Origin: an uncultured virus (IMG/VR IMGVR_UViG_3300046467_003049)
Lineage: Duplodnaviria; Heunggongvirae; Uroviricota; Caudoviricetes
Virus record (IMG/VR): IMGVR_UViG_3300046467_003049
Reading direction: 5' to 3' (one strand)
Length of the DNA: 64,000 nucleotides
Shown here: piece after piece, positions 6,333 through 63,999 of the stretch
Layout: each line of letters starts with the position of its first letter
How positions within the stretch are numbered: the stretch's first letter is position 1
Made by a program: the position numbers and the translations under genes
The notes under the pieces: generated by a model
The model's input: only the letters and a program-made list of their open reading frames with translations
Told to the model about the DNA's origin: nothing
The model's database searches: none

Positions 6333-6926
6333 ATGGGACTTTTTAGCTACAAAACGTGCGACACAAAACAGTCAATACCAGCCCTATATTCAAATCATGA
6401 AGACCGTGGGCGAAACGTCTACTTCCTTATGCCAAATGGCCAACCTAGCATCGTAGAAAACGCCTATGAGGGTTACGGGGTTTTTGGTGGTGTAGATGTA
6501 TTTGAATGGCTCGCAAACGCAAATATGGATATCCCTGAAGATGCAGATCCCGAAGAAGTTCGACTATTAGGTATAAAGCTAAACTCAGGCTCATTCAAAA
6601 TGTGGAAATTTGGTGACACTATTGCGTTTTACGGCACCGACTTTATTACAGAAACATTAACACCATTCCTTAAAGAAAAATACGGCAATATCACTGTAGT
6701 AAACCCCGATACGTATGCTGATCCTATCGAAGCATTCAACGGGCTTACCCTTAATGATATTGGAGATGGCAACAACACAATAGGCGCAACAAAAATCCTA
6801 CTGTCTGATGTTATCGAGATAAAACATCACATCAAGCTTTCTTTCAATCCAGACGCGGTTTACGAGCAAAACGGCAAAAGCGAAGACTGCGAGTATCAAG
6901 GCTTCCTCTATCCTGAATGCGGGTAA
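6333..6926 (+). CDS. phage-type hypothetical protein
   Basis: 197-aa ORF; divergent promoter TTGACA at 6269; ACACACACAACGGAG leader. Confidence 0.75.
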   Translation: MGLFSYKTCDTKQSIPALYSNHEDRGRNVYFLMPNGQPSIVENAYEGYGVFGGVDVFEWLANANMDIPEDADPEEVRLLGIKLNSGSFKMWKFGDTIAFYGTDFITETLTPFLKEKYGNITVVNPDTYADPIEAFNGLTLNDIGDGNNTIGATKILLSDVIEIKHHIKLSFNPDAVYEQNGKSEDCEYQGFLYPECG

Positions 6927-9170
6927 CTAACCAACAAAAGCCCTATGTGACTCAAAATCATTTAGGGCTAAAATTAAAAAAAATACATAAGTTAATTATA
7001 AAAATGATTGACAAAACCTCTTGGTGTGGTATCATAAATATACTGAAAACACACACTAGGAAGAATTAAGATGCCAACAGCAAAATGCGTAAAATCGGGT
7101 GATACTTTTAAAGTAGTTGGATTTGCCATGCTACCAAACTTCGCAGAACATTTCCTTATAACTAAGCCTGACAGCAACGATATTTGCGAGTGCTACGTGA
7201 TGGCACAATTCAGCGAATTCGGTACGGTTTACTCAAAAGATATCGAAAAACACACAAAAATTGATTGGGATGTTTCATCAGATCAAGATAGCGAACATTT
7301 CGTACTACCTCCTGAGGGATATGTTTGGGTTTAACCCCTTAACGCAAATAGCGCCTCAAGGGGCGCTATTACTTAAAAACTCAATGCCCTACGACCATAC
7401 CCTCTGGAACAGCCTCATAAAACGCCACAAACGCACCTGGGTAGCTATAACCAACCAAAGATAAGTTACTTTGACCATAGGCACCACTTTTTTCCGTATA
7501 GCGAATAAGCACGTTATCACGCTCTGGTGGGATATATTCGATCACACAAGGAAAACACGTACCATTGTTATTTGGGTGTTCTATAAAAACAGGCGCACCA
7601 ATCGCCGGCAAGTTTTTCTTAAAATCAACCAGCTGCCTTTTGTACTCTATTTCTCTTAAGCGGTTATCCTCTTTTCGCCAAGCACACTCAATACGCTTTC
7701 GAAACTGCTCAAAGAAATCAGCGTCTTCATCAGTCGTACAATAGAATGCATCAGTAGGATCGTTCTCATCGTCAGCATAACTCTTGTTAGCAGTTCTTAA
7801 TGCTAATCCAAATGCATCAGGGTCAATATCTTTTAATTCGCCATTGTATGGCTTTGCTCGGACGTATTTAGTCAAAGTTTTTACCCTTTTTGATAAATCG
7901 ATAAACCAAGTAACACGAGCCGCATAAAACAATCAAAGGCAACATGCTAATCAACGCCTTTAACCCATTCCAAACTAAACCAATTACCATCAGTGCTACA
8001 ACTAAAACCAAAATATAAACTTTCACAATACCACCAAAAAAAACACCACTTCTCAGGGGTGAATTTGAATTATTCGCTAAACGTATTTAGCTTACCAATC
8101 GATAAGCTAAACATAACATAATTACCGATTTGCTCAGCTAGGCACCGCATAGCTTTTTAGCAGTCACAATCCAGTTATCAGACATATTATAACTAAACCC
8201 TGACAACCTATGTGAATAAAGCTGTTTAGATAAGTATTGCTTACCTTGCTTACAAGACTTACTAATACGTGACATCCAATTACCATGCATATCGTAAATA
8301 GTTGTTTCAGTTTGCGCTACAGATGGATCAGACGGTACAGCTACATCAGTACCATAAGCAAACGTCGATAACTCTGCCATGATTTCATCTGCCGTAACAA
8401 TAACCCTTTCCATTTGCACTGAATTAGGCATTTGGTACGCTTGTGCGGCAACTACCTCACCACGTATTGTTGAAATATTATAGGCAATGCGCTCACCTAA
8501 ACTTTGCGTACTTTTAACAATAGCTACCGTACCAAGTGCGCCAACAAGTAATAAAACTAACATTACATATTTCATAAAAACCTCTTTTGTGTGTTCTTGA
8601 TTAACTGTAATAATTATATTTCATTATGATAAGTTTGTCAATCTATTTTTCTTTTATTTGTGATGCTTTGGATCATTTTTTCGACTTCTTCAAGCATGTT
8701 TACAGCAGGCACCATCATTGCATCTAATTCTGAATGCGTAACAACATCATTTTCAATAGCGCTGGCGGCTTCAGTGAAATGTTTTCTATAAATATCAAAG
8801 GCACCTAAATGAAACTTGGCTACACGAATAACTGAGTCTCTTCCGACAGCTCGTTTAGGAGATAAAGGGGTGTTAGATCGAACCTTAACGTCACCTTTAG
8901 TGCTATGGTGGTCTATATCACCATGTTGAGACGCCAACACTGCAAGTGCGTTGCATAGCTCCATCGCGGTTGCACCCACGCCATTGTTTATTATCGCTTG
9001 TTCAATCGCTTTATTTAGATTATCGGTCATCATAATGCCCTCATTTTAATATAAACAAAGTATACCAATAAATAAACTTTTGTCAATCATTTAATTTTAT
9101 CATTTTGCATTTATTGCTTGCATTTTTCTCTATTTGTTCTACTATATTAATACACACAAGAGAGGTATTT

Positions 9171-17824: not shown

Positions 17825-19198
17825 TCATGCGATTAATTCGCACTCTGTTAATGTCTCGTTTCCGAGCGTGTAACTAGAGCCTAAGTCGGTCAGTTCCGAC
17901 TTGTAGCGGTAAGTCCGTGCTTGCAATATTTCACGTACCTTTTTATAGGGTGTGAAAAGACTTATCTCAGTGTCTTCATTTCTTGCAAGCACGTTTCTCG
18001 CAGCATTGTAGTCAGACTGCATAACATCCCCGTTTTCACGATGAAATTTATCACCCTTCCTCGTGCCGACAAGCAGCCCGTGGCAGAATGAGTCCATTTG
18101 CGATGTGTATGCAGCATTAACTACTTGCAACGTAGAACATCTACGTTGAGATACAGTTTTTAGCGCATCTGCCAAAATACCTTTAGTCCAAGTATTTAAG
18201 CGCCTATTTGTTTTTTTACCGTAGTTTCTCTTTGACTGAATTGGCGAGGTTAAATCCTCACATACAATCAACCCCGCCTTATCAACAAGCTTATGAACGC
18301 CAGTGTAGATTACGGTTTTTAGCTTCGCCTTTTGACGATCTTGGCGCTTATTAAGCTTCTTACGCCCAAGGTTGTTCTTAATGATATTCTGACGCTTATG
18401 TGGCTTCTTGTTGGCGACTGAGCGTAGTTTATTCCTGTTTTTGTACTTTTGATTTAGGTGATCTGACTCGCTAGAAATAAGCTTACCTAAACCTTCGCCA
18501 AATGAATCTCCATCTGAGTCAACAAAAGCCTCCGTGTATCCTTTATCAACACCAACAGTTTTAGTACCACAATCCTCTATAACCTCAGCATCATACTGAG
18601 AATGAACATCTACAGTGCCGCTCTTCAGAATAATGCGAAGCGTACCAGTCGGAGCAAATTCCATCGTGGTATTTAAAGGGATCTGAATCGTTTTACGTGA
18701 CACTAAACTTGGAACTTTAAGCCAACACTGCCCATTCAGCTCAAAAGTTTTGCACATGTCGGCACGAACAATGATTTGGTTGTGTGTGTGGTTTACGCCA
18801 TGCTTGAAGTGCTTGCGCATCTGTCGATGCAAGAATTTATCCTCCATCCACTTATCACGCTTCAGCAACGTATAAAGCCTCTTTAATTCTTTTTTACAGG
18901 CTGTGCGTTCTCGGATAGCTTTTTTAACTTTTTCCTTAGCAGCTTCACGATATGCTTTAATGTCACCTACAGCATCACGCAGTGTTTCTTTCCAAGGATT
19001 TGCAGGTACTTTAAAATCAAATCCTTGCTTCAGCCACAAGTCCCGAACCTCACGGTCACGCAGGGATACTCCGTTAATAGAGCCATACTCGCGCCACACT
19101 TTACTGCGAATAGCACCAAGCAGAAGAGCTTGCTTTTTAAGTTGTTCATACTTGGATTTATTCAATGCTTTGCAGCGGTGGATTCGGGTTAGTTTCAC
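17825..19198 (-). CDS. tnpB: TnpB RNA-guided endonuclease (IS607-associated)
   Basis: RuvC motifs GVDKG, VCEDL, AYTSQ and SDYNAARN. Confidence 0.9.
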   Translation of the reverse strand: MKLTRIHRCKALNKSKYEQLKKQALLLGAIRSKVWREYGSINGVSLRDREVRDLWLKQGFDFKVPANPWKETLRDAVGDIKAYREAAKEKVKKAIRERTACKKELKRLYTLLKRDKWMEDKFLHRQMRKHFKHGVNHTHNQIIVRADMCKTFELNGQCWLKVPSLVSRKTIQIPLNTTMEFAPTGTLRIILKSGTVDVHSQYDAEVIEDCGTKTVGVDKGYTEAFVDSDGDSFGEGLGKLISSESDHLNQKYKNRNKLRSVANKKPHKRQNIIKNNLGRKKLNKRQDRQKAKLKTVIYTGVHKLVDKAGLIVCEDLTSPIQSKRNYGKKTNRRLNTWTKGILADALKTVSQRRCSTLQVVNAAYTSQMDSFCHGLLVGTRKGDKFHRENGDVMQSDYNAARNVLARNEDTEISLFTPYKKVREILQARTYRYKSELTDLGSSYTLGNETLTECELIA

Positions 19199-19800
19199 TT
19201 ACACTCCTTTGTTTCAACTAGCTTTTTAACCTTGTCTTTATATTTTCTAAGCCCATAAAGGCGTAAGGAAAAACAATGGATAATTGCTAGTAGATCTTGA
19301 GTGACTTCTTCTGCTGGTGATAAGGACTCTTGATTCATAATGACCACTTCACACCCATGTCTTTCAGCAAAAGCTTCAAACCACTCAAAGCCAAAGCGCA
19401 CTAGACGATCTTTGTGAGCGATCACCAGCAAAGAAACCTTACCCATTTCGATATCAAGAAACAGTTTATTGAACTTCTTGCGTTTATAGTTAAGCCCACT
19501 ACCTGTTTCCGACAACCACTCATCTACAGCGTATCCATTCGCTGAGCAGAACTTCTCTAGCGCATCAATCTGGTTTTTAAGATCAGGTTTTTGGGCGGCA
19601 CTGGAAACCCTACTGTAAACAACTATTGAAGATTTATCTTTTTGTGCTTTTAAGCCTATGTACTCAAGGTATTGCTCGTGAGTGTAATATCTTCTGTTCT
19701 TTGGATTTCTCTTAGCAATAAGCACCCCAGTAACATCCCATCTCTGAAGGGTCTTCACAGACTTGCCAATCATTTTTCCGAACTGTGCAGGTGAGTACAT
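19195..19800 (-). CDS. tnpA: IS607 serine recombinase/transposase
   Basis: N-terminal MerR-like HTH (SVKTLQRWD), YSRVSS, GSGLNYKRK and HKDRLVRFGFE. Confidence 0.93.
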   Translation of the reverse strand: MYSPAQFGKMIGKSVKTLQRWDVTGVLIAKRNPKNRRYYTHEQYLEYIGLKAQKDKSSIVVYSRVSSAAQKPDLKNQIDALEKFCSANGYAVDEWLSETGSGLNYKRKKFNKLFLDIEMGKVSLLVIAHKDRLVRFGFEWFEAFAERHGCEVVIMNQESLSPAEEVTQDLLAIIHCFSLRLYGLRKYKDKVKKLVETKECK

Positions 19801-41996: not shown

Positions 41997-43388
41997 TTGA
42001 CATTCTCCCCCACCTCGCTTCGCGCCAGCCGAAGGCTGGGAAGGAAGGGGATTCATTTGTTAGTTGAATAACAAAGGCTGGCTTTCTAAGAAACCAGAAG
42101 ATGCTCGCTTCAACGCGCTTGCCAATGCAGGCGCTCCACCAGCCAACACGACATGCCCTGCCGCTTCAATATTAAGACTCGCGTTATCATCAGCATTCAT
42201 CGTATGACCGCATTCAATGCAATGAAAAACTGCTTGTGTTTGCCTGTTTAATTTATCTCGATAACCGCAGCACGAACAGGTTTGACTTGTGCCAGCAGGA
42301 TTCACTTTAACGGTTTGACCGTTTCGCCAAGCTTGCTTGTAAGTCGTTAATTCAATTAATTTACCCCAGCCTTGATCGAGTATGGATTTATTGAGTCCTG
42401 ACTTTTGTTTAACCATGCTACCATGGTTATCTGCTGTGCCTTTCGATGATTTCGTCATATGCTTTACTTGTAGCTTTTCAAAGACAATCACTGCGTGGTT
42501 TTGGCTCATGATCGTTGAAAGCTTATGGAGTAAATCGTGTCGAATACGACTAATTTTACAATGTAGTTTGTTAATGCGTACTTTTGCTTTTTGCCAATTG
42601 CTGGAAAATTTAACTTTTCGAGCCAATTGACGTTGAAAGCGAGTGAGTTTTTGTTGATGGTCTTTAATAAGTTTAAAACCATCCACATAAAAGCCACTAG
42701 AGAGCGTAGTATGACGATTAACGCCTAAGTCGATACCAACAATCGTGCTAGATTGATGAGGTCGCTCAGTGCGGGTGTATTCTGTTTGAAAGGATATGTA
42801 CCAATGTCCTGAATCATAACCGACTGTCGTATTTTTAATTTTCCCTATAATATCACGAGAGCAATGAAAGCCAAACGTACCCAGTTTAGGCAAATAAACC
42901 CGATTGCCATGCGTTATGGTTACGCGTTGCGTATAACGAAAACTTGGACGGGATTTATGCTTTTTCTTTAGCGTTGGCAGGCGTTTATTTTTCTGGCTTT
43001 TATCAAAACCGTCTTGATAGGCGCGATAGAGATCTTTCAGCACTTGTTGCAACACGGTTGAATCCACGGTTTTCAGCCAAGTGACTTCTTTTTTAAGTTG
43101 CGTTAAGTGGCTACACATGGTTTGAAAGGATTCCACGTAATGACCGCGACTTCGCCTATATTCTTGGCGCTTTAAGAAGAAATTCCAAATAAATCGACAC
43201 GCGCCAGCTTGTTGCCAGAAAGCGTTGCTTTCTTTACCTAAAGATTTTAACCTGAATTTAAAGCCGCGCTGTATTTTCATGGGTTTAATTTACAATTAAT
43301 TGTTTGTATTGCAAAGGGTTTTTGTGATGGCTTCGCCATGACACTAACCATCCCCTACCTGAAGGAAGGGGCTTTTCGCATTTTTACG
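41997..43388 (-). mobile_element. tnpB-only IS200/IS605-family element
   Basis: CCCCTTCCTTC...AGGT(A/G)GGGG hairpins at both ends; right end TCAA; TTTAC upstream of the left end; excision gives the flanking gene the ending LLFTDKVSR*. Confidence 0.75.
42060..43280 (-). CDS. tnpB: TnpB RNA-guided endonuclease
   Basis: N-terminal GFKFRL/GACRFIWN, GIDLG, VFEKL, TSQTCSCCG, CIECG and ADDNASLNI. Confidence 0.92.
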   Translation of the reverse strand: MKIQRGFKFRLKSLGKESNAFWQQAGACRFIWNFFLKRQEYRRSRGHYVESFQTMCSHLTQLKKEVTWLKTVDSTVLQQVLKDLYRAYQDGFDKSQKNKRLPTLKKKHKSRPSFRYTQRVTITHGNRVYLPKLGTFGFHCSRDIIGKIKNTTVGYDSGHWYISFQTEYTRTERPHQSSTIVGIDLGVNRHTTLSSGFYVDGFKLIKDHQQKLTRFQRQLARKVKFSSNWQKAKVRINKLHCKISRIRHDLLHKLSTIMSQNHAVIVFEKLQVKHMTKSSKGTADNHGSMVKQKSGLNKSILDQGWGKLIELTTYKQAWRNGQTVKVNPAGTSQTCSCCGYRDKLNRQTQAVFHCIECGHTMNADDNASLNIEAAGHVVLAGGAPALASALKRASSGFLESQPLLFN

Positions 43389-45183: not shown

Positions 45184-46185
45184 TTATTCAACACCATTGA
45201 GATGCTTTGGATTCACCTTGGAATTAACTACCGTATCCTCAACAAACACAAACCTCGAATTAGGCGGGTAATTCTTGTACTCACCTTGATAATACTTTTC
45301 ATGCGACAATTGGCGAATATACCATGACCGGTAGTGCTCTGATGGACGTGATTTCTTGAAGCCTGCCGATAGTGATGATGACGAAACACCCTCTTCAATA
45401 GCTCCATCCAATGCAAAACCTTTAACCTTTGGAAAACCACTTAATATAGCATCTGGTTTTGTCATGGCAAAGACAGATATCGACAACACCAATTTAACCA
45501 AAACGTACTGCAACTCTACCTCATTTTCATCTAACTCCTCGCCCATAGGGGATTTAGATTCAAAAGGAAATAGGTACGACCGATACTCTGCGAAATCCTT
45601 AGACTTAAACAGTCTCTCTAACTGTTCACTATGGTAATTTAAAACCGTGGTGCGACCCTCAATATCACTGTAAGTTATTGTCATGATATTAGTGCCGTAC
45701 TGGCGCTGCTCTTCTGGTGGATCAATACCATTCACACCAATTTTATCAATCATCTCTTTTATTGTATTTTCAAAGTCATCCATATCAGGGTAAGTAGATA
45801 TTAATACACCACCTGGTTTGATCCCTTTTACTTCAAATTCAGCAGGCAAGCATAGGGCGAATGCTTTATATGGCGTAAATACTTTAGGCAGCTTATTTAA
45901 ACTGTATTTACCCTTAAGCAGGGCATCAATGTCTTTTTGTTCAACGAAAAGTGCATTCATCCCCGATTTTTCCCAGTTAACCTCTGCGGTCATGGCGATA
46001 GTGTTCATAGGGGATTTCAACTGATGACCATAATATTTCATCAACTCCCTGATTGCCGACCACCCCTTTAAATTTTTAAAACATGCAGGAATACCCTTTG
46101 TCGCAAATTTCCTTTCAATCGCGCAACAAACTCGCGTGTAAACTCGAAATTTTGAACGTTTAATTGGTTTGCTTTTTTTAGCCAT
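45184..46185 (-). CDS. hypothetical protein
   Basis: 333-aa ORF with C-terminal HYRSWYIRQL motif. Confidence 0.75.
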   Translation of the reverse strand: MAKKSKPIKRSKFRVYTRVCCAIERKFATKGIPACFKNLKGWSAIRELMKYYGHQLKSPMNTIAMTAEVNWEKSGMNALFVEQKDIDALLKGKYSLNKLPKVFTPYKAFALCLPAEFEVKGIKPGGVLISTYPDMDDFENTIKEMIDKIGVNGIDPPEEQRQYGTNIMTITYSDIEGRTTVLNYHSEQLERLFKSKDFAEYRSYLFPFESKSPMGEELDENEVELQYVLVKLVLSISVFAMTKPDAILSGFPKVKGFALDGAIEEGVSSSSLSAGFKKSRPSEHYRSWYIRQLSHEKYYQGEYKNYPPNSRFVFVEDTVVNSKVNPKHLNGVE

Positions 46186-47299
46186 AACTACGCCTATCCT
46201 TTTCTTGCGGTTAAGTGAGCGTTCTTTTTTTGCTTGGCTTTAGGGTAACGTTTATCTGTTGTTTGAGTCACAAGCGGAGAAGCATCGCATTTTCCACTTG
46301 CTCTTATGTAATATATTTCGGGGTTAATGCCTCTAGTAGAACCACCTAGAACTGCAATTGTGCGAGAATTTGACATGTAACTATACCTGTGTGCTATCAA
46401 TAGTAATATTGTACGTTATTATGATAAATTGTCAATCATTTTTGCAGAACAATAAAATAATAAAAGGCACTAGAAAGTGCCTCGTTATCAGTTGGCTTTA
46501 AAAATCGTTTTCACTGAGTTTTGAGCTGATTTGGTCAACTGGCACGTAAGACACATTGCCTTCAAGGATCTTCTCATAAGGCAAAAGCTCTAAGTGAGAG
46601 TCAGAGCCATGCTCCATCTCACTAAGGTTAGCTGCGATATTCAAACAATCTTCCATTGCCAACGCTTCAGCTTCTTCCTTCGAGCTTGCCGGAACATCCA
46701 TCGTGATATAGCCATAAATAGGCACAACAACTTCGTAGGCTTCTTCTGATTTTTCTGTACTTTCTAGCTCTTCGCTCATATTAAACACCTCAAAGGTTCG
46801 AGTTAATTTGGTTTCGTCTTCATTTTGAGCATCAGTGACTTTAAATTCAATATTTTTATCATCATTCGTGACATAAATGTTTAGGTGGTTATCTTCATCA
46901 CCCACAACCTCAATACTATAACCTAAGCGGGATAAACTATGCGAACTAGGTTCGTGCTCAATCGTTTCATCTTTACAATAAGCCGCCTCGATACCTTCAG
47001 TGGTGAAACGTTCGCCAAACTCATCACAAGCTTCGCTTGAGCCATTTGACAGATCATCAACACAAGAAATTTTGGTTTTATCTTGGTTCGTTAGGCTAAT
47101 AACAAGATTTTCAGAGTCTTCATTAACAAAAACACTCCAATTACCAACGTTAACTGTATTCTCTTTAGAATTATTTTCCACGGGTAAATCCAACTTTAAA
47201 AACAATATATGCATTTTATCACAACGAACAGTGTTGTCAATCATTTATTTTTAATAAAAAGAGTTTACGGGAGTTTTGATTTTCAGATAGGTAGTAGTA

Positions 47300-47625
47300 T
47301 GGTGTGCGGTCTTTCCCGCCGTCAACTGGAACACCTTAGCAAGTAGCCACCGATAAAAGCGACAAACCTACCCCAAAGGAGACACTATCAAAATATAGAA
47401 AGTAAAGCGTATCGTCACCCACCTACAGTACAGACACGAACACATTACTCTTACTACTTCTCAAACCCAATACAAGCCGGATGACAGATAACGCCAAGCG
47501 TAAGGGATGAAACTCTATACCATCAGCATAAAGGAAAAAGCTTCCAATTCAGAGGGTTATTGGTTGTGGCCACCCCCTGCTATACGCCACTCTTAAGCGT
47601 CTGAAACTTAAGAACCACAATAACA
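47300..47625 (-). ncRNA. candidate multi-stem ncRNA ending in a GCGG-GAAAGA-CCGC hairpin and CCA
   Basis: Intergenic interval with no tracked ORF, multiple G-U-containing stems on the - strand, and a 3' ACACCA. Confidence 0.55.
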
Positions 47626-49014
47626 AAATGAAACGAAGAAATACATCTGCGCTAAAAAGATATTAACACAATTGATCAGGGTTTCTTTATTGCTGTTTAT
47701 TTATTTTCTTTTAGCTTAATTGCTGTATAAGCCCGTCAATCGCGGCTTCTGCATGTTTTGTTACTGTGCTTTTGTTTACTGTTTTCACTTTATTTGCCAA
47801 CAAGCTAAGCTTTTCCTCAATGCGTCTGTCTTTTTCTAATATTTGCAAGTTCGTTTTTTGACCAAAAGAAGTGATCTCTACTAAAGGCATTTCACACTCT
47901 TCGAAGTCCGATAAATTAAAATCAGCAAAAATTGCTATCACCCCACCTTCAACTGAAAACCCACAAACGTTATCAAGACAGAAAGCGTCATTCATCTCTT
48001 CAGCAGTATTATAATGACAGCCTTGCACTGGAAAGCCCATGTTAATGAGTTCACATGCAACCGCATAACCATTGCCGTTTACCGCCTTTACTTTGAATTC
48101 TTTTGGTAATTCCATACCCTACCCCTTTAAATTTGGCTAAACTGCCATGCCTAATGATTTCACGTCTTCATCGTTTAAAAACAAATCACGACCCAAGTCA
48201 TAATATGCATGCTCATGTGATTTTTTGTTCCACATATACTGAATTCTACGACCTTTAACAGTCATTACCGGCTCAGTTCCACCACACGCTACAACCCAAT
48301 TAGACATAACAACAACTCCTCAGTGACTATGAAATAATTATATTATCATTATGCACTTTTGTCAATCTTTTTTATTTATTTGTCTTGACTAAAAACCGTC
48401 ATTAATGCACAATAAGAATATAGAAAATCACAAACAAAAACGGGATCAAGTATGAGCGTTTCAAGAATATGCGAGTTTTACCTAGCAACGGATAACAAAT
48501 GGTATCTAATGCTTGCTGAAGACGAGCACACTGAAGAAATAGATGATTGTTATGCCATTGGTCCATTCAATTCATTGGAAGAAGCTGAACAAACCCTGGT
48601 GGAAGCTCCTCTACCTAATACTGGCTCAGCAAGCATAGATGACTCTGGAACAGTTGAGCCGCCAAAGACTGCACTGCTTAACTCAAAAGCATCATTGCTC
48701 AAAGGCGAGCTAAAATGAATCGACGCCATCGACGCAATAAAATCCTAGATTACCTCGCGAAACACGGCTCGATAAAAGCATCGAACGCACAAGCCAGAAC
48801 TGAAACCGGCTTCGCACACAAACCAGTTAAGCAATATAATAGGCTTTCTTATCATCTTGAATTGCTATGGGAAGAAGGTGTAATATCTGGATTTAAATCT
48901 AAAGGTAAATGGGAATACCACCTAATTTAAAAGGGCATTGCTTTATCAAGGCAACCAAGCTCCATTTATAGATCATTGAGTTATATTTAGTGCCATACAA
49001 AAACTGGCACCACA

Positions 49015-49425
49015 ATGATCATAGACAACATCAAAAACACTGTTATTAAAAACTCTACCCTTCACGGGAAAGGGCTTTTTGCTACCCGCAGTATTGAAAA
49101 AGACACATTACTATGCGTGCTTGAAGGGCAAGTGTTAACAACCAAGTGTTACATGGAATTGATTGAACATGGCAACTACGGGCGCAATTGCTTTATTGAA
49201 AAATATAAAATCGATGACACCCACGTTGCTGCTATGCCCTTTAGGACAAAATACAGCTTCATTAACCACAGCGACAAACCCAATGTTTACAGCGTGCTTA
49301 AAGATCGAAAGCTTTACGTATATACATCTACCAGCATCAATCATGAGGACGAACTGGTCGATACTTACAACTTAAACAAGCATATTGACGTGCTTGGCGG
49401 GTTTAAAGAAACCCAGGTGCTTTAA
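49015..49425 (+). CDS. SET-domain protein
   Basis: STLHGKGLFA, FINHSDKPN and ELVDTY motifs. Confidence 0.85.
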   Translation: MIIDNIKNTVIKNSTLHGKGLFATRSIEKDTLLCVLEGQVLTTKCYMELIEHGNYGRNCFIEKYKIDDTHVAAMPFRTKYSFINHSDKPNVYSVLKDRKLYVYTSTSINHEDELVDTYNLNKHIDVLGGFKETQVL

Positions 49426-52114: not shown

Positions 52115-54352
52115 TTAAAGCTCACACACTCCACCCGCACAAGCCTGAGCACCTAACGTATCAACATTGGTGAAACGCTTTTTCTTTAACGATTCAACGA
52201 AGTTTACTGGCTTCATCTTGCTTTTAATTGAACACCACTTATGAAGATTATTAACATCTTTAAGCGCATTACACATCTTAACCAAATCACCACCAAAGTA
52301 AGTCTTAGCGAACTTCTCACCACGACGAACCCAATCACGCATCAACAAGTGCTGTGAGTTATCATCATCTAATTCTTGACCATAACCCATCAAGGTGTCA
52401 CAAGCTGACCACAAGTTGTTGCTGAAAGCATGTAAAGCATCAACAATCATTCCTGAGGCAAATATCGCGGCATCACCATACATTTCAGTTATCTGATCTG
52501 CTGTGAATACTTCCGTAAATGGAGACTGAACAAACGCACGATCACCAGACTTAGGCATCAAACTTACACCCGCAAACGAATCACGATTATCAAAAATATA
52601 ATCTTCAACCGCTTGCCAATCATCAACACTGATAGTATTAGAAACATTGTGACTTAAACGAGGGTCAACACAAAGCGATTCAACCTTACCTTCTTTAATG
52701 TAAACCGATTGCGCTTTACGAACATACTCAAGCTGTTTAACACCCATTAAATCACGTTTAAACATAGCAGTGGCAGGAGCTTCAATAGGGAATGAAATTA
52801 CTACATCATTGCCGTTAGCGTTCCAAAATGACTTTTCAACCATAGATGGATTAGTTTCTTTAATTAACTGCGCGACTTCTTCCGTCTTGCTCATTTGAAT
52901 GTTTCTCAAATATAACGGGGCATGCTCACCATGAATACCCGAGGCGCAACCAAGAATAGTACTCGCATTACCAGAAGGCTTAACCGTTGTTGTACGTGCA
53001 GCTTGATTAATACCAATCAATTGAGCAATACGCTTATTAACATCAACGATAAGGTTTGCAGCTTGTTTCATGTTGCTTTCATTAAACAACACATCAGGAT
53101 TATCCATCCAACCTGTGATAGAACAACCTAGCAACGCTTCACGCTCAGTGATCTCTTTACTCGCATCATCAAGGTACGTAAAATCAGTATAACCCGCTTG
53201 AAGTGTACCAAGGATAGCCGAGGCTTTAGATGCACGTAATAACGACTCTAAATCGACACAAGCACCACCATTTGATTCTGTTAAGTTACAGAACTGAAAA
53301 CCAGAGCGACCATCTTCTGTATAACCCATCAAACCAATTTCAACACAAGGGTTAAAACCAAACTCTTCATCATCAGCCATGATGAATCCTGGCTCACCAA
53401 ATTCACGCGTTTTACGCATAATTTCAGCAAATTCATCTTTCGTTAGCTTATTTCTAACCAACATAGCTGAGTTGTTAGAGCGACCACGCTGAGGGTTTTT
53501 CTCGAACCAATTACCCGTCTTAGCACCCATCATCTCTTCATCATCTTTAGAGAAAACACATAATGTTGCTGCTCGACGAATTCCACCACTTAACACCGCA
53601 TCAGACATATGCATAATAAAATCATACGCCTCAATCGGGCTTAGTGAAGCGGGATCTGAATTTTTAATCGCTTTATCCAACAAAACACGACATTTATCAA
53701 TCGCAATTTGTAAACCTCCATGGCCTGGGGCTTGGAAACCACCTGAAATATGTGCACCACGTGGACGAATCTCTGAATAATCAAACAATACTGTCTTACC
53801 CGCATACTCAGGGAAAGTAGCACCTTCTGTAAAATATGATGACAACAATACACCAAAAGCGTCAGCCCAACCTTCAATCGAATCAGGCACAACAAACACG
53901 TCCGAAACATTGCTTGGTTTTGTGATCTTAGGAAGTTTAGCTACATGATGCTTTTGTACTGAGAAACCAACACCACAACCCGCTAGCAATAAATACATGG
54001 CATGTTGAAAGAAAACTGGACGGTCAACGTAACTGAAAGAACAATTATACATTCTAGCGTTATGCTTCATGATTTGCTCACCACCGAACTGTAACGCTCG
54101 TTGTGCACCTAACACTAATTTGTCACGATAGGCTTGCTCTGCAAAGCTAATAGCCTCTTCAAGCTCATCAGTCATCACTGGCGCATATTTAGAACGATGC
54201 ATATTCATTACACGAGTAACTGAGTCGTCCCACGTTTCATAACGACCTAATTCATCATTCCAACGCGAATAACCTTTGAAAAAATTAGCCTCGCTCATCA
54301 TGTTTTTAGTGCTAAATTTTGGTTTAATAGCTGTTACTGTACCCATTTTCAT
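52115..54352 (-). CDS. nrdJ: class II (B12-dependent, NrdJ-like) ribonucleotide reductase
   Basis: YNC, FNPCVEI, FCNL, TTVKPSG and C-terminal CAGGVC; no beta subunit in the window. Confidence 0.8.
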   Translation of the reverse strand: MKMGTVTAIKPKFSTKNMMSEANFFKGYSRWNDELGRYETWDDSVTRVMNMHRSKYAPVMTDELEEAISFAEQAYRDKLVLGAQRALQFGGEQIMKHNARMYNCSFSYVDRPVFFQHAMYLLLAGCGVGFSVQKHHVAKLPKITKPSNVSDVFVVPDSIEGWADAFGVLLSSYFTEGATFPEYAGKTVLFDYSEIRPRGAHISGGFQAPGHGGLQIAIDKCRVLLDKAIKNSDPASLSPIEAYDFIMHMSDAVLSGGIRRAATLCVFSKDDEEMMGAKTGNWFEKNPQRGRSNNSAMLVRNKLTKDEFAEIMRKTREFGEPGFIMADDEEFGFNPCVEIGLMGYTEDGRSGFQFCNLTESNGGACVDLESLLRASKASAILGTLQAGYTDFTYLDDASKEITEREALLGCSITGWMDNPDVLFNESNMKQAANLIVDVNKRIAQLIGINQAARTTTVKPSGNASTILGCASGIHGEHAPLYLRNIQMSKTEEVAQLIKETNPSMVEKSFWNANGNDVVISFPIEAPATAMFKRDLMGVKQLEYVRKAQSVYIKEGKVESLCVDPRLSHNVSNTISVDDWQAVEDYIFDNRDSFAGVSLMPKSGDRAFVQSPFTEVFTADQITEMYGDAAIFASGMIVDALHAFSNNLWSACDTLMGYGQELDDDNSQHLLMRDWVRRGEKFAKTYFGGDLVKMCNALKDVNNLHKWCSIKSKMKPVNFVESLKKKRFTNVDTLGAQACAGGVCEL

Positions 54353-59184: not shown

Positions 59185-60546
59185 GTGAACTACTCGGCAC
59201 TAAAGCACCGAGCTTCAGCAAACCTAAATTAGGCTGCTTCTTTTTTCTCAGATCCCACACCAAACTTTGGTCGCTTAAAGACTTTCGTTTTAGAAGGTGA
59301 TTTCTGCTGAAATTTGGGCAACGCCCTAGCTAACATCCCATTAGCTATTAAATCTTTTTCGCCCGTTTCTGCCACGGATTTAGCCGCAGACAAATCTCGG
59401 CACTGCACTTTGCCACAGCTTTCGCAAGCGAATTCACGCACAGTTAAATCGAATTTATGTTCGTGTTTACATTCAAAACAAATACCTGACGATTTAACAA
59501 ATCGACCTATTTCATAGTACACAGCACCACTTAGCTCGGCCTTATATTTGACCAATTCCGTGATTTTGCCCATGATATTGTCGTTAACCATCTGGCCATT
59601 AAACTGCTGCATTCCTTTCACATTCAAATCCTCAAACACGATAATATCACTACTCTTGGCTATCAAGCGGCTTATTTCGTGTGCCCACGATAGACGTTGG
59701 CGAGAGATTTTCCCGTGAATTTTATTTAAGCGTGATTTTGTTTGGTGCCATCGATTAGAGCCTTTCTTTCTCCGGCTCAACTGGACTTGAATTTGTTTTA
59801 ATTTTACAGCTCCCTTTTTAAAAAATTTAGGGTTGTTAACATACAATCCATTAGAGCTGACAACGGTGTGCTGACTGTTGATGTCGTAGCCAGTGAGTGT
59901 TGTCAGTATTTGTTTTGCGCTCTTACACTCAACTTCTTGAGTGAGTGAAACGTACCATTTTCCGTGCTTAAATTGTACCGTAGCCGTTTTAATTTTACTG
60001 GCGAGTTTTCTATGCAAAACAATCGGTATTTTACCAATTTTAGGGATACTGATCGTACCTTGTTCAATACGAATGCAGTTAGAATTATTCACGCACCTAA
60101 AACTGTCATCGTGTAATTTCTTTTGCCTAAAGCCCACTTTAAACGTTGGAAACTGTTGAGTGCGACTTTTGGTGAATGCGTTCTTTAAGGCTGCATCTAG
60201 ATCACGCGCCACTTGCTGCGATGCCGCAGCATCAAAAGCCTTGAGCCAAGAAAATTCTTCAAACTTTTTTAAATCTCGAATGAGTTCCGCCATTTCATGA
60301 TAAAACAAAAAGGTTTTATCATAACGATATCTTCGTATATTTTCAGATAGCAACAAATTCCACAGCCCACGCGCATATGAGCCAAACGCTACGAGTTTAA
60401 CTTCATCGCCTACTGTTGGCTTGAGCCGGTAATTATATCTGAGTGTCTTTTTCATGTACTGTATAGACTACTGTATAGCCCCAAAGTCGTCAAGATATTA
60501 TCGATTCATCTCGGCACTAAAGCACCGAGTATTCTCGACAACATTG
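59185..60546 (-). mobile_element. tnpB-only IS200/IS605-family element
   Basis: Identical 20-bp hairpin CTCGGTGCTTTAGTGCCGAG at 59193-59212 and 60510-60529; TTTAT target; right end TCAC. Confidence 0.85.
59229..60455 (-). CDS. tnpB: TnpB RNA-guided endonuclease
   Basis: YNYRLKPT, GYDIN, VFEDLNV, CFEC/CESC zinc ribbon and RDLSAA. Confidence 0.9.
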   Translation of the reverse strand: MKKTLRYNYRLKPTVGDEVKLVAFGSYARGLWNLLLSENIRRYRYDKTFLFYHEMAELIRDLKKFEEFSWLKAFDAAASQQVARDLDAALKNAFTKSRTQQFPTFKVGFRQKKLHDDSFRCVNNSNCIRIEQGTISIPKIGKIPIVLHRKLASKIKTATVQFKHGKWYVSLTQEVECKSAKQILTTLTGYDINSQHTVVSSNGLYVNNPKFFKKGAVKLKQIQVQLSRRKKGSNRWHQTKSRLNKIHGKISRQRLSWAHEISRLIAKSSDIIVFEDLNVKGMQQFNGQMVNDNIMGKITELVKYKAELSGAVYYEIGRFVKSSGICFECKHEHKFDLTVREFACESCGKVQCRDLSAAKSVAETGEKDLIANGMLARALPKFQQKSPSKTKVFKRPKFGVGSEKKEAA

Positions 60547-61590: not shown

Positions 61591-62349
61591 TTAACCAACA
61601 AATTCAGACTTACGCTTTCTCTTAAGCGCACCCATACCAATTAAACCTAAACCAAAGATTGCCATAGTGGCCGGTTCAGGCACTGATGTAGCATTTGCGT
61701 TATACGCAGTACTGTTTGGGTTGTTTGATGTCAATGACATATCTTCTTGCGTGGTTTTGGTAGCACCACCATCCGCAACCAAGAACACCCCAAAAGCACT
61801 ATAGGAGTAGTCAGGGGTATTGGATACTTCTAGATTCAAAAAATAACTCACTTTGAAACTGTCACCACTTCCCAGAACAGAAAGACCAGATAAATTAACG
61901 CCGCCATCTTCAGGCCTTTCAAATAAACCCGCTACATGCGGACGGTTTTGATTGTTGGAGGCATAAAGTAACCCCAAAGCATCACTATTGACATTCACAA
62001 TGTCTAGCATGCCCTGTTTTGTTTCCTGTTTAGTCAAGCTGTAATTTTCATCAGCATCAAGGTTTGTTTCCCATAGGTAATTATAGACGCCTGCTACCTC
62101 TTGAGCAGACGGCAATCGCCAACCCTCGTAAATACCACCTTCACCTAATTCAGACTTAACATAAGACAAAGACTTGTTAGCCGTAGCCTCAAGCTTAAGC
62201 CACTCAACACCCGTCTCTTCATGCAAAGTCGCCTGTTCATCGCCATCAACCTTCCAGTCCAACGACACAAACCCTGCATTAGCTACACTTGAAATACTAA
62301 GCGATACAGCTAAAACCAATAAGCTAATCTTTTTCATCACAACATCCAA
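61591..62349 (-). CDS. PEP-CTERM sorting-domain protein
   Basis: Signal peptide (MKKISLLVLAV...ANA); C-terminal VPEP, TM helix and KRKRK. Confidence 0.9.
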   Translation of the reverse strand: MDVVMKKISLLVLAVSLSISSVANAGFVSLDWKVDGDEQATLHEETGVEWLKLEATANKSLSYVKSELGEGGIYEGWRLPSAQEVAGVYNYLWETNLDADENYSLTKQETKQGMLDIVNVNSDALGLLYASNNQNRPHVAGLFERPEDGGVNLSGLSVLGSGDSFKVSYFLNLEVSNTPDYSYSAFGVFLVADGGATKTTQEDMSLTSNNPNSTAYNANATSVPEPATMAIFGLGLIGMGALKRKRKSEFVG

Positions 62350-63579: not shown

Positions 63580-63999
63580 CTAAACTTTGCTTTTTTTACT
63601 CATTCTAGCAGCACCAAGACCAAGTAAACCTAAACCTAAAATGGCCATTGAGGTCGGCTCCGGCACCGAAGTCGCACTGCTAACATAAGCCGTACTGTTC
63701 GGATTATTTGCCGTTAACGCCATATTTTCTTGAGTGGTCTTTGTTGCTCCGCCATCCGCAACCAAGAACACTGCGAAAGTGGCATGTTTAGACACTTCCG
63801 AATTGAAAGTGTCATTGTAATTATCTTTTACAAACCGGCCATTCGAACTGTAGTAGCTTGAACCAGAATAACGAGTAGTGCCATCATCAGGATCTACAAA
63901 AAGACCTTTGGTCATATATGTTGCCGGATTACCCGCTTTATAAACCACACCAAACACATCAGAGTACTGCGCGTAAAGCGTAGCAGCATCGCGACTCAC
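63580..63999 (-). CDS. PEP-CTERM protein, 3' part (paralog of 61591-62349)
   Basis: Shares VFLVADGGATKTTQE.M.LT.NNPNSTAY...ATSVPEP; continues beyond the window. Confidence 0.88.
   Translation of the reverse strand: MSRDAATLYAQYSDVFGVVYKAGNPATYMTKGLFVDPDDGTTRYSGSSYYSSNGRFVKDNYNDTFNSEVSKHATFAVFLVADGGATKTTQENMALTANNPNSTAYVSSATSVPEPTSMAILGLGLLGLGAARMSKKSKV

Follow-up and report, generated by a model that had tools for sequence, protein, structure and literature searches.

Does the intergenic region at positions 47300..47625 of IMG/VR record IMGVR_UViG_3300046467_003049 encode a structured non-coding RNA and, if so, of which kind? An earlier note on the 64 000-nt stretch of DNA analysed here (the window) had proposed an RNA of ∼320 nt, folded into two domains and encoded on the minus strand. 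This proposal was supported by homologues and covariation. The region very probably specifies a real RNA under selection; the RNA constitutes a new structured family within the broad kind of mobile-element RNAs and has no match in Rfam. The features of the locus are collected in Table 1.

Table 1. Coordinates of the RNA, its structural elements and its neighbours in the window.
Feature	Position	Strand	Evidence and remarks
Structured non-coding RNA, long form	47300..47625, conserved part 47615-47306	(-)	nhmmer homologues, covariation; 5′ and 3′ ends approximate
P0 hairpin, long form only	47589..47615, 7-nt loop 47605-47599	(-)	pair probability 0.92; some two-sided changes
H-type pseudoknot core	47550..47590	(-)	covariation over 8 sequences, invariant columns
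P1	47590-86/47570-66	(-)	3/6 pairs changed on both sides
L1	47585-80	(-)	6-nt near-invariant first loop
P2	47579-72/47557-50	(-)	3/7 pairs changed on both sides
P3, long closing helix with 3′-side bulge	47549-38/47337-24 (47324..47549)	(-)	encloses variable domain
Inner helix P4/P5	47384..47527, ∼47527-13 with 47400-384	(-)	encloses variable arms
P0-loop partner site, kissing-type	47431..47437	(-)	complement in 5/5 long copies
Small pyrimidine-tetraloop hairpin (47383-70) and variable last hairpin (47372-38)	47338..47383	(-)	80 % paired, weak
Portable hairpin: UGAC, 4-bp stem, GAAAGA loop	47306..47324	(-)	8/8 copies
ACACCA tail	47300..47305	(-)	1/8 copies, not conserved
Promoter of next gene	47213..47240	(-)	11/12 match; 65 nt after hairpin; repeated promoter element of the replicon
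56-aa ORF, syntenic neighbour	48137..48307	(-)	widespread unnamed ∼50-aa domain family
Sigma-70-type promoter	48337..48365	(-)	12/12 consensus match only; nearest scored upstream on the RNA strand

Homologues and distribution of the RNA

Homologues were located by way of a 333-aa window protein, the alignment of whose relatives led to six metagenome loci. The RNA was detected by nhmmer in all six of these related marine loci (E 1e-23 to 0.02), each of which also carries the pattern of the 5′ core. Locus L184 is a repeat of L185 and was left out of the comparisons; L183 holds three RNA copies in tandem. The distinct sequences number eight, that of the window included, and share 45–73 % identity (alignment A2). 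Five copies are long (∼270–350 nt: window, L186, L185, L183A and L182) and three are short (∼200 nt: L183B, L183C and L181), and the columns invariant in the eight sequences are concentrated in the 5′ core and the 3′ hairpin. No conserved ORF was found within the RNA on comparison of the eight distinct copies, the Met-initiated ORFs being at most 45 aa long, different from copy to copy and mostly antisense.

At the gathering threshold, Rfam 15 gave no match in the window or in five homologue loci, the best hits (E 2.1 and 7.6) being to unrelated models, and ARAGORN predicted no tRNA or tmRNA gene in the window, in agreement with the earlier statement that the RNA is not a tRNA cloverleaf. A blastn search of phages and plasmids with the RNA region returned nothing beyond chance matches of 22–30 nt, and exact patterns from the 3′ end of the window copy were absent from metagenome, viral and genome collections. 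The core pattern was found at 55 loci in IMG/VR, none with a full-length profile match and all with model scores of at most 27 bits, as against 60–70 bits for the training copies. Three of these core-pattern loci were inspected, and two of them were rejected, L235 lying antisense inside a 743-aa ORF and L221 reading as coding by eye. At L231 (1497-1550, (+)), an intergenic partial look-alike of the pseudoknot core follows a small repressor-like gene and is accompanied neither by the 3′ hairpin nor by the remaining RNA; it may be a chance occurrence or a distant relative. Covariance model R2 matched none of seven named plasmid records and neither of two virus records of distant relatives (a set holding no positive control record), and scans of GTDB and viral collections with the 333-aa family gave no match. 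From its absence in the seven distant named plasmids and in IMG/VR, the RNA appears to be limited to one clade within the range searched.

In one study, a run guessed to be RNA, possibly DNA, assembled within the RNA region into one contig of 271 nt (47325-47595), to which no weight is given as evidence. The isolate-like run X11 differs in the RNA by four changes, too small a number to weigh, of which two keep pairs and two fall at unpaired positions; one G-U to G-C exchange was seen in this variant within 47338..47383. No description of the RNA or of the GAAAGA hairpin was found in the literature covered, which included the abstract, outline and searchable supplements of PMC10690425. The hairpin may have been listed before; for the whole RNA this is less likely.

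Secondary structure and covariation

Owing to the high G and U content of the strand, the folding energy of the whole RNA region (z −0.42 against shuffles; −2.4 for the 5′ domain and −1.1 for the 3′ domain) is no better than that of shuffles. Since folding energy alone is not above chance, the evidence for the RNA consists of conservation and covariation. Over the eight sequences, 94.8 % of 134 cells of P1, P2 and the 3′ hairpin pair (slid controls: 21–46 %) and 16 cells are changed on both sides, compared with 5.0 in shuffles (0/500); over the 45 pairs of the five long copies, 90 % are paired and 18 pairs are changed on both sides, compared with 8.7 (0/500), all counts having been made on MAFFT alignments that were not structure-fitted and for a structure that was read from the same sequences. 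The eight sequences are related and form about three groups, the shuffle control ignores this kinship, and several of the double changes each reflect one event between groups. Many of the exchanges are of G-U for G-C, as would fit an RNA made from the minus strand, and G-U pairs, which are frequent, are kept on one strand.

The true conserved core is an H-type pseudoknot (47590-47550), which had been overlooked in the earlier note. P1 crosses P2, the second loop consists of 1 nt and the third loop (L3) is A-rich; the invariant unpaired bases sit in this compact pseudoknot. The note had drawn the 5′ domain with a GTTATTG/CAATAAC outer stem and a TTCAGA/TCTGAA pseudoknot, a combination that did not stand up: in the five long copies 67 % of its cells pair, and 274/500 shuffles do as well. 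The GTTATTG/CAATAAC and TTGTGGTT/GGCCACAA stems overlap by three bases in their 5′ arms and so cannot both form in full, and TCTGAA is the 3′ arm of a covarying helix together with the start of the closing helix. Searched as a pattern, the pseudoknot of the note occurs at 51 viral loci, none of them homologous. All sequence words that it quoted were recovered at their places on the minus strand, and several of its helices are well formed in the single-sequence fold, with pair probabilities of 0.92 (TCTTAAG hairpin), 0.89 (AATTGGAA/TTCCAGTT), 0.87 (AGAGTAA/TTACTTT), 0.97 (GTCGCT/GGTGGC) and 0.99 (GAAAGA hairpin).

The closing helix had also been recognised and is upheld by the comparison. In the five long copies, 92.6 % of the cells of P3 are paired and 7 of its 11 pairs are changed on both sides; it closes a multi-arm variable domain, and an equivalent helix is present in the short copies. 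For P4/P5, 85 % of cells are paired and 5/12 pairs are changed on both sides (long copies); P4 conflicts with the single-sequence fold of the window, in which 47533-13 pair locally.

The UUCAGA loop of the P0 hairpin had been likened to a T-loop and assigned a partner at 47553-48. Its pairing site is instead 47437-31: by anchors, a complement of 7–10 nt was found at the equivalent place on an inner arm in all five long copies. Loop and site vary together, loop CAGAC occurring with site GUCUG and loop CAGAG with site UUCUG, and both are missing from all three short copies. For a loop that base-pairs over a long range and is missing from the short form, a T-loop identity is not supported. Since MAFFT does not align the partner site, this pairing was evaluated without a shuffle test; three copies contain further, shorter complements of the P0 loop. 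An extra 5′ hairpin was observed in four long copies (approximately L186 8120-8147, L185 8597-8627, L183 6866-6890 and L182 7357-7380) and is seemingly missing from the window copy.

The 3′ hairpin module

The GAAAGA hairpin is present in all eight RNA copies, once with an extra A, and the exact 18-mer of the module was found at no fewer than 116 IMG/VR loci, with 78 distinct contexts among the matches listed. Of these contexts, 16 contain tRNAs, which in 16/16 cases lie on the strand of the motif and in 11 within 150 nt of it; more than one such hairpin is present in 16/78, and a CCA follows within 7 nt in 12/78. In phages the hairpin stands before terminator-like hairpins, between tRNAs or in arrays. 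By a crude test, a Met-ORF of at least 100 aa on either strand overlaps it in 31/78 contexts, which are therefore not all clearly intergenic. Among 20 hairpin loci scanned, four adjoin Proteo-phage-1 RNAs and one adjoins c4-2; the hairpin itself lies outside every Rfam match. The 5′ core was absent from the 100 hairpin loci examined among the matches listed, and one of nine records of distant relatives contained the hairpin pattern, with a mismatch.

Two arrangements were noted in passing. Arrays of four to five hairpins with GAAAGA or GAGAGA loops occupy less than 600 nt at L001, L008 and L058 (∼1400-1560), L001 having no Rfam match. At L029 and L049 (∼1465-1530), in a tRNA-Gln/tRNA-Asn interval, the hairpin lies within a separate 8-bp stem, apparently as a small RNA of its own.

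The replicon and the surroundings of the RNA genes

The window is gene-dense and contains small orphan ORFs, most with a repeated sigma-70-type promoter element in front. Its Pfam-type content comprises a ribonucleotide-reductase-like gene, thymidylate kinase, dCMP deaminase, a DNA methylase and a SET protein, and three TnpB-like genes and a transposase are also encoded. No virion or conjugation family was detected among 50 window ORFs scanned against Pfam; the ORFs scanned included no recognisable replication gene. The 333-aa ORF (45184-46185) has relatives with 23–29 % identity in nine plasmid records of 157–972 kb, and a 583-kb contig carries window proteins. The runs that best match the window DNA are ice and seawater metagenomes, and Colwellia is the named source of one member of the window's transposase cluster. 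The replicon is read as megaplasmid-like, with a marine gammaproteobacterium as its inferred host; it may alternatively be a jumbo phage. That the RNA carriers form a clade of marine plasmid-like replicons of 0.3–0.6 Mb is the best explanation, put forward tentatively as part of the whole reading set out below.

Several further features of the window were recorded. One promoter element is present in dozens of copies (58 occurrences of ATTGACA over the two strands), many followed by an AC-repeat leader ahead of small orphan genes, an arrangement that resembles early-gene or plasmid-entry cassettes. The SET-domain protein (49015-49425, (+)) stands alone on this plasmid-like replicon, and the ribonucleotide-reductase-like protein (52115-54352, (-)) shares 61 % identity with a gene, annotated as recombinase, of a Variovorax megaplasmid. 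A PEP-CTERM protein is encoded at 61591-62349 (-), and a 169-nt repeat, 76 % identical, lies 2 kb off at 63611-63779. The TnpB-like genes are located at 17825-19800, 42060-43280 and 59229-60455; one adjoins a MerR-resolvase gene, a pair suggestive of an IS607-like arrangement.

The RNA is situated in long co-directional gene runs, among small accessory genes. No scored promoter stands directly before the window copy. Scored promoters lie just upstream of L183A and L183C (6815-6843 and 7539-7567), and, by eye, L183B sits behind the repeated promoter motif of the replicon and L182 is preceded by a −10-like element. No terminator-like site was found after the window or L183 copies. The promoter word ATTGACA occurs within 200 nt downstream of six of the eight copies (the exceptions being L186 and L183B) and the downstream genes vary between RNA loci, so that a role in cis is unlikely.

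In the window and in five of the six related loci, the distance between the 56-aa ORF and an RNA copy is at most ∼0.7 kb. Its protein family comprises 236 clusters and at least 88 viral loci, with 17 repeats in one 2940-aa protein (P0047), and has no match in Pfam, PHROG or the atlas. This family, the candidate considered as a protein partner of the RNA, was rejected, as none of 80 of its viral loci carries the core or the hairpin; the association is one of synteny, not a shown partnership, and no partner protein was found.

Comparison with known RNAs

The RNA is most like the mobile-element RNAs ROOL, GOLLD, PAGEV and skipping-rope, and by Rfam it is a member of none of them. With ROOL and GOLLD, as these are described in the available parts of two sources (PMC5737381; bioRxiv 2024.12.08.627333), it shares a mobile-element origin, pseudoknots, covariation, a function yet to be assigned, long-range loop pairings and a conserved core combined with a variable part; like them, it combines a complex, covarying and pseudoknotted fold with carriage on a mobile element. 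ROOL and GOLLD measure ∼600–800 nt in those parts, whereas the marine RNA measures 200–350 nt, lacks an Rfam match and a tRNA in the window, and has two size forms and tandem paralogues. The plasmid-borne motifs PAGEV, ARRPOF and GEBRO average 223–349 nt, and PAGEV occurs in marine gammaproteobacteria (PMC5737381, available part); the marine RNA differs in having no Rfam match, is surrounded by small accessory genes, and its G-U-rich pairing points to RNA. According to the same part of PMC5737381, DUF3800-I, drum and skipping-rope are likewise free-standing, are conserved in the manner of riboswitches or ribozymes and do not act as leaders, but they have terminators at their ends and accompany a single protein family; the marine RNA has no terminator, and its neighbouring small-protein family also occurs without it. 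T4 RNA C and D (species I and II), to which the earlier note had likened the RNA, are also small RNAs other than tRNAs, encoded by a mobile element and without an assigned function; they are 119–139 nt long and lie inside a tRNA cluster, and no shared motif was seen.

The H-type pseudoknot topology is known from the SAM-II and preQ1 aptamers, tmRNA pk1 and type III antitoxins. The marine core differs from these in its invariant bases and in having no Rfam match, and no tag frame, cognate toxin or regulated gene was found for the RNA. A type III antitoxin was considered and rejected, the copies being 200–350 nt long rather than short tandem repeats and the flanking ORFs having no Pfam family. 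Processive antiterminator-type elements include put, EAR and boxB; the GAAAGA hairpin resembles boxB of the lambda type in being short and purine-looped, but no boxA or N-like protein was noted. The module has a 9-nt run in common with 23S rRNA 2054-2068 (PMC12887398, available part), which may be chance.

Possible modes of action

The explanation that we favour, though it falls somewhat short of an even chance, is that of a stable RNA working in trans, with the pseudoknot as binding site or decoy for a host protein and the hairpin as a marker of the 3′ end. The host sigma-70 polymerase would transcribe it, some copies from a promoter of their own and the window copy by read-through from 48365. 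The 5′ pseudoknot would be the working site and bind the host protein, with L1 possibly forming base triples in the deep groove of P2. The closing helix would present an interchangeable domain, clamped by the P0 loop in the long form, and the GAAAGA hairpin, recognised by a protein, would stand in for a terminator by fixing or shielding the 3′ end. By analogy and from its context, the RNA might then act on a host factor, such as a nuclease or a defence protein that senses RNA, either as its scaffold or as a decoy, during establishment of the element in its host.

A cis-acting processive antiterminator or transcript-boundary element, in which the nascent RNA and hairpin modify RNA polymerase or guide transcript processing, is unlikely: such a role would suit the phage positions of the hairpin, singly or several to a context, and the long co-directional gene runs around the RNA, but not the promoter word after six of eight copies or the tandem copies with promoters of their own; no terminator-like site was found near the copies, nor any Rfam match. 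The covarying loop-to-arm pairing raises the prospect of an RNA-only ornate assembly, since in ROOL and GOLLD pairs of such type are intermolecular (bioRxiv 2024.12.08.627333, available part) and the P0 loop could likewise build a multimer. The marine RNA is far smaller than ROOL and GOLLD, its short copies lack the pairing and the window lacks a tRNA gene, which leaves such a multimer distinctly unlikely. Much the same standing is given to a new self-cleaving or processing ribozyme with the invariant pseudoknot as its catalytic core. The invariant unpaired bases in a compact pseudoknot, the tandem copies and the failure to find a terminator after the RNA speak for catalysis; yet no known ribozyme family was matched in Rfam, the sequence 5′ of the core differs between long and short forms, and cleavage needs neither a large variable domain nor promoters before the copies. 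A riboswitch or other leader acting on the next gene is very unlikely, even though the SAM-II and preQ1 aptamers are likewise H-type pseudoknots whose loop is conserved, given that the downstream genes vary and mostly have their own promoter after the RNA; no expression platform was seen and Rfam gave no match.

Very unlikely, too, is a conserved single-stranded DNA structure or untranscribed relic: it would account for the unremarkable folding energy, but not for the frequent one-strand G-U pairs, the promoters before copies or the constant placement of the hairpin module on the tRNA strand. It is highly improbable that the RNA is an orphan guide-RNA scaffold for TnpB-like proteins with its variable 3′ tail as the guide. 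A constant scaffold followed by a variable tail, in a window with three TnpB-like genes, has that appearance; the RNA, however, does not resemble the three tnpB genes at their 3′ ends, no TnpB gene lies beside the copies listed, and the eight tails match the window and five loci over 10–13 nt, compared with ∼11 nt when shuffled (a small target set). Least credible is the comparison to which the earlier note inclined, with a stable tRNA-like RNA that ends in CCA, in the manner of T4 species I/II. An ACACCA does follow the hairpin in the window, and some of the viral contexts listed have a nearby CCA, but the encoded CCA end is a feature of the window copy only (0/7 other distinct copies), acceptor stem and T arm are missing, and, by eye, the 5′ core and the GAAAGA hairpin are both absent from T4 rnaC and rnaD. 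A bolder reading is also doubtful, namely that the pseudoknot might be the active site of a new catalytic or ligand-binding RNA class, which giant plasmids express in exchangeable long and short versions so as to disarm or redirect a process of the host, and that the pan-phage GAAAGA hairpin is a universal tag for one conserved host factor, possibly imitating the A2058 loop of 23S rRNA.

Significance

To our knowledge, few large bacterial RNAs with conserved tertiary pairings have been found, and ROOL, GOLLD and RAGATH-18 yielded new biology once they were followed up. The natural minimal form of ∼200 nt and the natural deletions of a tertiary contact make the present RNA inexpensive to probe; with it, the widespread, uncatalogued GAAAGA hairpin can be studied in a defined setting. 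Giant marine plasmid-like elements bring their own RNA genes.
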